DNA of 64,000 nucleotides from Escherichia phage Mizar. The position numbers and the translations under genes were made by a program. The DNA lies in the sequence record PV714129.1. One strand, 5' to 3'. Positions 4,139 to 5,095 of this stretch are shown here, piece after piece. Every line of letters begins with the position of its first letter. The stretch's first letter is position 1. The notes beneath the pieces were generated by a model. The model was not told the origin of the DNA and made no database searches. It worked only from the letters and a program-made list of their open reading frames with translations.

Positions 4139-5095
4139 TTATTTGAAAGGTTTTACCATATGAAAATTTTGTTTGAAACGCTTGACGTAATCGTCGTGTC
4201 CTAAGCTTTGATACATACTTACTACTTTGCCATAGTTCTCCCAGGCATACTCACGGAACCAGCCTGATGTGATTGAAGTACAGACCTTTTCTAATGCCAT
4301 CATAAAACTATCACGAGGATGGATTTCAAAGTTATTAGGAATCTGAGAACGTTCTAACGCTAGTACACATGATTCTTCGTATACGCCGGCCAATTTGACC
4401 ATTTCCGGAAGTGATTCGAACTTCTCGCGTGAGGTCATGACTTCAGAACCGTCTTTCATATAAAATGTATACGCTGGACGGTCTGTTAGTGCAATGGCTT
4501 CGTGAATAGTATCATGATCGTATGTGTAGATGTCATCTTTAAAGAATGCGCTTTTAGAAGTGTCAAGAACTGGGTGAGCATAGTTCAAGGTTTCTTTCTG
4601 GCGTTTCAGCATAATTTCAGTAAGTTCATCGTTCAGTTTAACACCTTTACCACGAAGATACTGAATATGGTTCATAGTCTTTAAAAAGAATGGATTATTT
4701 TTCTTGAAACGATGAGACATCTTAATTGCAAGACACATCTCAGGAGTTGCCCAGTAAAACCCGTTCAAACGGTCTTTAGTCAAATTTTTCTTGGCGTATT
4801 TTAAAAGGCCATAAGAAGACGTGAAATCTTCAGGAGTGAGTTCACCGACTAATTCACGGACATTAGTGATTGCCGGAACAATGTATGCTTCAAAATGAGT
4901 TTCGCGTCCATTATGGAAGCATTTGAAAACTTGGACATCAGGGTTATCTTGGTGAACATATACGCCCATCATTTGATTTTTGAATACGTTCCAAGAACCT
5001 TGGTCCGCAATAAAGTCCCAATCACTATTTTTGATAGCGCTAGAATCAATAAGACCATGATAGTGAAGTGCACGAGAACCAATAACTAACATCAT
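4139..5095 (-). CDS. hypothetical protein (318 aa), possible nucleotidyltransferase-fold enzyme
   Basis: Largest ORF of the accessory region; N-terminal IGSRALHYHGL...NSDWDF resembles the h-G-S ... D-x-D signature of Pol-beta-type nucleotidyltransferases; not verified. Confidence 0.5.
   Translation of the reverse strand: MMLVIGSRALHYHGLIDSSAIKNSDWDFIADQGSWNVFKNQMMGVYVHQDNPDVQVFKCFHNGRETHFEAYIVPAITNVRELVGELTPEDFTSSYGLLKYAKKNLTKDRLNGFYWATPEMCLAIKMSHRFKKNNPFFLKTMNHIQYLRGKGVKLNDELTEIMLKRQKETLNYAHPVLDTSKSAFFKDDIYTYDHDTIHEAIALTDRPAYTFYMKDGSEVMTSREKFESLPEMVKLAGVYEESCVLALERSQIPNNFEIHPRDSFMMALEKVCTSITSGWFREYAWENYGKVVSMYQSLGHDDYVKRFKQNFHMVKPFK

Follow-up and report, generated by a model that had tools for sequence, protein, structure and literature searches.

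Nucleotidyltransferases with a Pol-beta core occur in several described systems that resemble the locus reported here. MenT/AbiEii enzymes (MenT1, 8an4; MenT3/TglT, 6j7n; MenT4, 6y56) are bacterial and chromosomal and have AbiEi/MenA antitoxins as partners, and class II CCA-adding enzymes and poly(A) polymerases, with the same core, act on RNA 3′ ends. In AbiEii/DUF1814 proteins the spacer between motifs I and II is x15, compared with 9-13 residues in other members, and is followed by motif III (KLxAaxxR), originally likened to the RxxRxxR of CCA-adding enzymes and poly(A) polymerases, and by motif IV (+DxxD). The antibiotic nucleotidyltransferases ANT(2'')-Ia (AadB) and LnuA act on sugar hydroxyls of small molecules. 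Proteins can be substrates as well: in the GlnD-PII system, a Pol-beta-type enzyme nucleotidylates a small protein. The nucleotidyltransferase MntA is reported to adenylylate its co-encoded partner HepT (PMC7641770), and a preprint describes phage MNT-like enzymes, also of the Pol-beta type, encoded in accessory regions near DNA methyltransferase and nicotinamide adenine dinucleotide (NAD)-salvage genes (bioRxiv 10.1101/2022.06.09.495361). Here we analyzed a 64,000-nucleotide stretch of DNA from Escherichia phage Mizar (PV714129.1), referred to as the window, and found that a 318-amino-acid (aa) protein encoded at 4139-5095 on its minus strand, hereafter the enzyme, has a predicted Pol-beta nucleotidyltransferase fold with a complete catalytic signature, and that its gene is linked to genes for small proteins ending in a conserved serine- and cysteine-containing tail. 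We have high confidence in the fold, catalytic signature, and gene linkage taken together; the use of the tail as the acceptor of the nucleotide is proposed tentatively.

In profile searches, the enzyme matched only two Pfam domains of unknown function (DUFs), DUF7277 followed by DUF7275, an architecture common to all 27 aligned members, and PHROG 2141, which has no assigned function; NCBIfam, PADLOC, and the PDB (phmmer and profile searches) gave no match. The features of the enzyme gene, including the predicted catalytic motifs, are as follows.

4139..5095, minus strand: enzyme gene (RB69ORF134c ortholog), 318 aa, ATG start, from the open reading frame (ORF) listing
Enzyme residues 2-101: Pfam DUF7277, 5.7e-27, 94.7 bits (cut-off 27)
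4793..5092, minus strand: predicted Pol-beta-type catalytic core, residues 2-101
5075..5080, minus strand: G6-S7, hG[GS] motif, G in 257/257 and S in 253/257 aligned sequences
5015..5023, minus strand: D25-W-D27, putative metal-binding DhD motif, 17 residues past G-S
4889..4891, minus strand: E69, predicted third catalytic carboxylate, on the last core strand
4700..4723, minus strand: K125-M-S-H-R-F-K-K132, motif-III-like, in the helix after the core
4181..4738, minus strand: Pfam DUF7275, residues 120-305, 6.8e-79, 264.6 bits (cut-off 27)
4502..4519, minus strand: D193-H194-D195-T-I-H198, acid/histidine cluster at a helix start, codons read directly

An earlier note on this DNA, made from the sequence alone, had proposed a G-S ... 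D-x-D nucleotidyltransferase pattern at the N-terminus, which reads MMLVIGSRALHYHGLIDSSAIKNSDWDFIADQ (the peptide quoted there corresponds to residues 4-31), and had named conservation of the D-x-D residues among homologs as one point on which the proposal could fail. Conservation was counted in an HMM (hidden Markov model)-guided alignment of 267 family members, in which position 25 is D in 261 and E in 2, position 27 is D in 263/263, and position 69 is E in 251 and D in 13. The same five residues (G6, S7, D25, D27, and E69) are invariant among the 27 diverse members. Past the core, K125 is kept in 265/267 members and H128 in 265, R129 is R in 251 and K in 15, and K132 is K in 229 and R in 35. 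Judged by this near-invariance, the G-S/D-x-D pattern is not a chance one.

The AlphaFold2 model of the enzyme (predicted local distance difference test score, pLDDT, 89.3; predicted template modeling score, pTM, 0.84) agrees with the proposal, and all structural statements made here rest on predicted models. The elements follow in the order strand 1, a helix from residue 6 with G6-S7 at its start, strand 2 (residues 26-31) with D25-x-D27, a helix, and three strands, the last of which (64-73) carries E69. The Pol-beta hallmarks are present as I5-G6-S7, D25-W-D27-F ([DE]h[DE]h), and F68-E69-A70 (h[DE]h), and in the model their G-S/D/E arrangement is canonical for Pol-beta. The predicted alpha/beta core superposes on solved Pol-beta members; MenT1, MenT3, and MenT4 are the top structural matches, with ANT(2'') and LnuA also among the best. 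Of the checks suggested in the earlier note, profile searches gave DUFs only, whereas comparison of the predicted structure gave the nucleotidyltransferase fold. Conservation and modeling together show a two-lobed Pol-beta nucleotidyltransferase of the MenT/AbiEii/ANT(2'')/LnuA type with a complete catalytic signature of hG-S, D-x-D, a third carboxylate, and a motif-III-like K...HR..K helix, and the protein is very probably an active nucleotide-transferring enzyme. The fold assignment is new in detail, as the family was previously catalogued only as two DUFs.

Membership of the families with this fold was not found at the sequence level. None of the 27 members matched Pfam AbiEii/DUF1814 even at E up to 10, there was no match to a Pfam ANT(2'')/LnuA family, and when hhalign was used to align the family profile with AadB, whose sequence was verified to be that of PDB 4wqk, the probability was 0.1%. 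The remark in the earlier note that the spacing is longer than typical holds against the 9-13 residues found elsewhere (x17 here), but a long spacer is typical of AbiEii/DUF1814. The K125-K132 segment fits motif III at positions 1, 2, and 8 only. No +DxxD pentad of motif IV was found in the enzyme, and the only and best candidate for the MenT motif-IV aspartate, 15-22 residues past the motif III lysine, is position 143 (4667-4669), which is D in 92% of the family, His in the window protein, and His or Thr in enterobacterial T4-like relatives. MenT proteins lack the extra invariant helical module of about 145 residues described below, and no cognate AbiEi/MenA antitoxin gene was seen upstream of the enzyme gene, where multi-copy, acidic, Ser-Ser-x-x-Cys-ended partners are encoded instead. 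ANT(2'')-Ia (AadB) and LnuA are about half the size of the enzyme, without a DUF7275 module or partner proteins. By sequence and model, the enzyme is therefore a Pol-beta-fold protein of the MenT/ANT(2'')-like structural group, yet a member of neither family, and because sequence-level membership is lacking, we do not file it within DUF1814 or ANT(2'')/LnuA. The phage enzymes of the preprint differ in having GS-x-AY[GAN]T-x4-SDxD (a spacer of about 10) and NP-x-h2[DE] motifs and no DUF7275, compared with a spacer of 17 and other downstream motifs here. The Av-05 nucleotidyltransferase of that preprint was considered as a member of the same family and rejected, since its motif differs and the first 50 kb of the Av-05 genome gave no match. 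Two other candidates were also rejected: an HD-domain phosphohydrolase in residues 120-318 (suggested by H128...H194-D195), as the HD helical fold was not seen, and a cGAS/DncV-like nucleotidyltransferase, as the CD-NTase fold was not seen.

Three genes for small proteins with a shared C-terminal end lie upstream of the enzyme gene on the same strand.

5922..6227, minus strand: small acidic partner 1, 101 aa, ending GAWVSSSALC directly before the stop codon, with GDYGSGRTYYP; family HMM 4.9e-17; PHROG 899
5640..5912, minus strand: small acidic partner 2, 90 aa, ending GGWVASSHTC directly before the stop codon, with YGMGGTY; family HMM 1.6e-19; PHROG 899
5433..5630, minus strand: small partner 3, 65 aa, ending QGWVSSSYSC directly before the stop codon; PHROG 4882; match to the tail regular expression

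Small partner 3 has no YG.G motif and falls under the family HMM threshold, with the tail kept. These three are the sole tryptophan-type tails among the 547 ORFs of the 64-kb window, and no Cys-tails were found in the T4 segment or in 50 kb of phage Av-05. Across the family, the small proteins have a helical N-terminal part, often with GDYGSGRTYYP or YGMGGTY, and end in G-x-W-x-[SA]-S-S-x-x-C with an immediate stop. Among 123 unique tails, Cys is the last residue in 120, W stands at −8 in 113, and S at −5 in 118 and at −4 in 109. For the 207 unique small proteins, the median length is 83 aa and the median isoelectric point (pI) 4.4, and no Pfam family matches them. Fewer than half of them carry YG.G, which makes the tail their unifying feature, and the only universal feature is the C-terminal G-x-W-x-[SA]-S-S-x-x-Cys-COOH.

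The annotated neighborhoods of three unrelated phages contained no named conserved partner. Eighty viral loci were then fetched and added to the earlier ones, ORFs were called, and unannotated ORFs were clustered; the partner emerged from this clustering, in which the small-protein family was present in 12 of 23 lineages (defined at 60% enzyme identity) at a median of 720 bp upstream of the enzyme. When a tail HMM was applied to 87 loci with ±8 kb flanks, 134 ORFs matched, all on the enzyme strand and all between −3000 and +500 bp of the enzyme start, with no matches elsewhere in these flanks; 74/87 loci and 17/23 lineages were positive. A relaxed tail pattern was found in 226/1328 upstream same-strand ORFs vs 17/13085 elsewhere (odds ratio 158), and several of those 17 are in fact also adjacent to the enzyme gene. 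By this pattern, 22/23 lineages were positive; in the remaining one (L010), a tail ORF lies just upstream of the enzyme gene. The reciprocal test, with homologs picked by profile search with the small protein, gave a DUF7275 gene at most 600 bp downstream in 6/6 diverse small-protein homologs on metagenome contigs. The distribution of the small proteins detectable in phage records mirrors that of the enzyme.

Each enzyme gene is accompanied by one to five tandem small genes. In many lineages a small gene directly abuts or overlaps the enzyme gene, with a stop/start overlap of a few bases in several. Gene order is not fixed, because in Stenotrophomonas phage BUCT608 (L106) two Cys-tailed ORFs (3665-3952 and 3859-4245) lie downstream of the enzyme gene. 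Fusions in longer homologs were looked at and set aside as uninformative: a DUF1190 fusion (P0054) looks like a gene-call chimera, and the 377-aa metagenomic protein P0238 is a fusion with the small partner itself, in which ...SQWNSSGGPAC is followed in frame by seven residues and then by the LLIGSG start of the enzyme. P0238 may be a genuine fusion or may reflect a lost stop codon. Across the sampled subfamily, the enzyme gene is the constant partner of genes for tailed small proteins.

The C-terminal half of the enzyme (residues 120-318) is better conserved than the catalytic core. Among 146 cluster representatives, H194, D195, H198, E240, E241, E248, R249, S277, G278, and R281 are 100% conserved, and K125, H128, K139, K270, and C272 are conserved at 96-100%. 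The D-H-D..H cluster is retained in KVP40, actinophage, and Vibrio phage homologs. C243 was considered as a second invariant cysteine and rejected as nonessential because it is Tyr in many members that have partners. In the model, the first three helices of this half align with TglT and 5uvd and correspond to the MenT-type helical lobe. As only these three helices align, modeling shows residues ~175-318 as an all-helical, near-invariant, virus-restricted module without a known fold.

Comparison of ten further loci, a small sample that is not phylogenetically independent, separated residues of the enzyme by the presence of partners. Phages Mx1, RsoM2USA, and BUCT608 have tail genes nearby and keep R129, K132, R165, H174, C272, S277, and R281. 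The same seven residues are lost in six homologs from Wakanda (L103, Streptomyces), Aphelion (L104, Gordonia), prophi86-1 (L110, Mycobacterium), the Vibrio phages K460 and RYC (L108/L109), and KVP40 (L105), which have no Cys-tailed ORFs within 2.5-3 kb; C272 is replaced by V or I, S277 by K, and R281 by P, A, T, or C. This partner-less group keeps K125 and H128 (KVP40 was not aligned there), the D-H-D..H cluster, E-E, and E-R, and G-S and D-x-D are kept in Wakanda, Aphelion, and KVP40, the three whose N-termini were read. The distant partner-less subfamily is also shorter (248-266 aa). These patterns suggest a layered build, in which a catalytic apparatus is common to all members and a further surface, specific to the subfamily, accompanies the tailed partners.

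Homologs of the enzyme number 2222 at E<=1e-3 in a database clustered at 90%, or 1578 clusters at 50%, and matches occur in 734 phage records; because of these homologs, the 318-aa ORF is a genuine gene and no chance ORF. The records include enterobacterial, Aeromonas, and Acinetobacter T4-like phages, Phapecoctavirus, Otagovirus, jumbo phages, and Myxococcus phage Mx1, with remoter matches in actinophages and KVP40. A search of BFVD returned family members only, giant-virus DUF7275 proteins among them. In a scan of one genome per species (185,579 bacterial and archaeal species), only five loci were found, all in metagenome bins, and the family is therefore essentially viral and not a bacterial system, in contrast to MenT. 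Nearly all homologs are named as hypothetical proteins in databases, with two named "nucleotidyltransferase" and two given structural names. Some records ("prohead assembly scaffold protein" and "baseplate hub subunit") look misannotated, in some GenBank and BFVD records the gene appears as two ORFs, with products of 117-173 aa that have either DUF7277 or DUF7275 alone, and NicPhage is annotated with a 343-aa form that starts further upstream. Searches of the literature on DUF7275/DUF7277, RB69ORF134c-139c, peptide maturation in phages, and partners with a C-terminal cysteine brought up no relevant paper, so that neither the linkage nor the C-terminal module is described in the literature searched.

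We propose, as our preferred reading but as a tentative hypothesis that falls short of being probable, that the enzyme nucleotidylates or otherwise processes the tails of the small proteins, with the tail as acceptor. A hydroxyl is required by such an enzyme, and two serines and the terminal cysteine are all that is invariant in its partners, which points to the tail; the co-variation of the partner-specific residues with partner presence points in the same direction. MntA-HepT resembles this locus in the type of enzyme and in the co-encoded small protein and is a case in which an enzyme of this kind modifies a protein encoded alongside it, so that nucleotidylation of the partner may be viewed as a functional analogy. 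One enzyme with many substrates accounts better than a one-to-one inhibitor for the presence of several small genes beside a single enzyme gene. In the proposed mechanism, a nucleoside triphosphate would be bound with two Mg2+ ions held by D25, D27, and E69, and the nucleoside monophosphate would be transferred to a hydroxyl of the docked tail, most likely that of Ser −5 or Ser −4. The tail would be held by R129, K132, R165, H174, C272, S277, and R281, whose basic side chains would hold on to the free C-terminal carboxylate of the cysteine. The variable N-terminal parts would be the functional ends of effectors that the phage produces early in infection, and the nucleotidylated or further processed tail would activate, target, or protect these effectors.

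Several observations weigh against the tail as acceptor. The link between enzyme and tail is genomic only, and the loci are phylogenetically related, so that the p-values of the linkage overstate independence. Among solved structures, the closest relatives modify RNA 3′ ends or small-molecule sugar hydroxyls, not proteins, and the analogy with MntA-HepT and GlnD-PII has its limits, as these belong to a different subfamily of minimal nucleotidyltransferases with a 9-13 residue spacer, their acceptor is a tyrosine in a folded domain instead of a C-terminal Ser/Cys tail, and no HEPN or PII partner is present at the enzyme loci. Where D is the rule at the candidate motif-IV position, the window protein has H143. 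The tail genes of BUCT608 are downstream of the enzyme gene, and DSS3_PM1 (L102) keeps C272, S277, and R281, yet no tail gene was seen within 3 kb. Finally, distant homologs manage without partners, so the ancestral acceptor would have been something other than the tails, and a role of the small proteins as regulators or adaptors is just as possible.

A role as regulators is what the small proteins would have if the enzyme were instead a MenT-like RNA-tailing enzyme, which we consider possible but doubtful. It would act on the 3′ end of tRNA or of another RNA, leading to shut-off or re-tuning of host translation or to repair or alteration of tRNA ends, and the small proteins would be inhibitors, activators, or specificity adaptors docking on DUF7275, like MenA/AbiEi. 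The best structural matches, MenT1, MenT3, and MenT4, extend tRNA acceptor ends, and the long spacer from G-S to D-x-D is common to DUF1814, whose motif III the K125-K132 helix resembles. The order of an upstream small gene and a downstream enzyme gene is also that of MenA1-MenT1, but MenA1 binds via a helix and not a tail, and no known MenA resembles a set of one to five paralogs that share an invariant Ser/Cys end. The partner-less homologs show that the core reaction is independent of the small proteins. Phage tRNA genes are 5.4 kb away in the window and close to the enzyme gene in Gordonia phage Aphelion, but they are not consistently nearby in other lineages. The missing AbiEii/DUF1814 match and the motif-IV aspartate not kept in the window protein also argue against this activity, as does the mildly acidic pI of the family (median 6.1), unlike that of typical RNA-binding toxins.

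It is rather unlikely that the enzyme is a small-molecule nucleotidyltransferase acting in NAD+/ADP-ribose conflict within a counter-defense island, with the small proteins as modulators. It would nucleotidylate a sugar hydroxyl of, or condense a nucleotide onto, a metabolite or immune signal, with an ADP-ribose-derived signal or the step from nicotinamide mononucleotide (NMN) to NAD+ as candidates. The structural matches to ANT(2'') and LnuA are consistent with a small substrate, and genes of NAD metabolism recur near the enzyme gene. NAMPT-like genes are present in the flanks in lineages 2, 8, 14, 15, and 18 (5/23) and at the metagenome loci L093-L099, and directly upstream of the enzyme gene in the partner-less Vibrio phages K460 and RYC; phosphoribosyl pyrophosphate (PRPP)-synthetase-like genes stand beside them in six cases. 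At L084, L093, and L098, the gene immediately downstream of the enzyme gene encodes a Macro domain, and genes for Sir2, a putative ADP-ribosyltransferase, Acb1, and NudE (nudE) are near the enzyme gene in other phages. However, the association is partial, in about a third of lineages, and could reflect the clustering of early accessory genes; in the window, the only NAD gene is nudE, 2 kb away and in a synteny conserved in T4. Competitor cyclic dinucleotides are, according to the preprint, products of other phage nucleotidyltransferases, but the motif of those enzymes is of a different, MNT-like kind in which the spacer is short, and the first 50 kb of phage Av-05 contain no family member. A small-molecule substrate would also leave the universal Cys-tailed partners and their Ser-Ser-x-x-Cys end unexplained.

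As an observation in its own right, NAMPT-like and PRPP-synthetase-like genes occur as a pair beside the module in about a third of lineages (L008, L084, L086, L093-L099, L108, L109, and others). They look like an NAD+ reconstitution pair. Their proximity may be functional, or it may be a mere clustering of early accessory and counter-defense genes.

An elaboration of the tail-as-acceptor proposal, which we consider improbable, is a viral post-translational maturation system in which a tail serine would be activated by nucleotidylation, and DUF7275 would then keep the conjugate or eliminate the nucleotide. The D-H-D..H, E-E, E-R, and C272 residues of DUF7275 would carry out this second step. 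If the nucleotide were eliminated, the terminal cysteine could close a lanthionine-like ring over S-x-x-C, and one enzyme would mature a whole family of effectors with variable N-terminal heads. In AviCys/lanthionine-type precursors (epidermin-like), a Ser precedes the C-terminal Cys by three to four residues, and one enzyme serves several precursors. The small proteins are like these precursors in their Ser-x-x-Cys-type end and in the one enzyme that would serve several of them.

A non-enzymatic role in structure or assembly, for which the only hints are the homolog names "prohead assembly scaffold protein" and "baseplate hub subunit", is effectively excluded, since the protein has a nucleotidyltransferase fold with invariant catalytic residues, the gene lies among early/accessory genes and not in structural modules, and the names clash with each other and with the majority name "hypothetical protein".

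The region of the window around the enzyme gene is DNA of an RB69-like T4-type phage (Mosigvirus), with 96-97% DNA identity to phages that include E. coli O157 typing phage 3 and NicPhage; at the protein level, identity is 96% to RB69ORF134c and 96-99% to Mosigvirus phage orthologs. A GAGGA Shine-Dalgarno sequence is present at 5103-5107, 7 nt upstream of the enzyme gene start. The earlier note had called this ORF the largest in the accessory region, which is correct, as the runners-up between nudE and the tRNA genes (10506-11459) have 228 and 207 aa. It had also remarked that T4 has no gene of this size between nudE and the tRNA cluster, and this was right, because the gene sits in RB69 within an eight-gene insertion that separates the T4 homologs e.2 and e.3, and in T4, checked at the syntenic region only, e.2 abuts e.3 and the insertion is absent. 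Other features of the locus are listed below.

5131..5382, minus strand: 83-aa ORF (RB69ORF135c ortholog), separating the small-protein genes from the enzyme gene
6287..6315, minus strand: sigma-70-like promoter match TTTACG-17-TATAAT (10/12), just upstream of the first small-protein gene; consensus match only
5399-5427: second sigma-70-like match TTTACA-17-TATAGT, upstream of the 83-aa ORF; consensus match only

The RB69ORF135c ortholog is not conserved beyond close relatives. Its C-terminus (...LWDEYNIACREI) has a tail-like W-x6-C spacing, no serines, and three extra residues, and the ORF may be a decayed member of the Cys-tailed family.

Five neighboring ORFs on the minus strand (2315-2743, 3495-3800, 6224-6583, 6562-6987, and 6926-7549) have a common C-terminal E-x-F-I-x-E-C-R, their ends being ...ERFITECRNLR, ...ENFIKECRGK, ...ENFIKECRK, ...MEFVKEIRCKSLNS, and ...EQFIMECREYVKANPVHAK. 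They are of the e.2/e.3/e.4 type or RB69-specific, and several are predicted membrane proteins. To judge from these ends, they are a second paralog family with a conserved end, unrelated to the Cys-tailed proteins. In the tRNA cluster, a 223-aa ORF (10567-11238, minus strand) starting MVMSICKHCNMEFDISNKPKGW... lies between tRNA-Arg (10506-10581), which its listed extent overlaps by a few bases, and tRNA-Asn (11307-11378), at the place where T4 carries the homing endonuclease gene segB.

In conclusion, the enzyme and the Cys-tailed proteins are a two-part phage system for which we found no published description. Large lytic phages carry hundreds of early genes without known function, and many of those that are understood are tools for host takeover or counter-defense. 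The enzyme is widespread, from enterobacterial T4-like phages to phages of Myxococcus, Ralstonia, Aeromonas, and Acinetobacter, with relatives in actinophages and giant viruses, and its chemistry can now be guessed, with a candidate substrate encoded next door. If the Ser-Ser-x-x-Cys ends are modified, this would be a new viral protein modification and would give a means of tracing a whole family of effectors in phages; if the enzyme is instead a regulated MenT-like RNA-tailing enzyme, it would be the phage-side counterpart of a bacterial toxin family.

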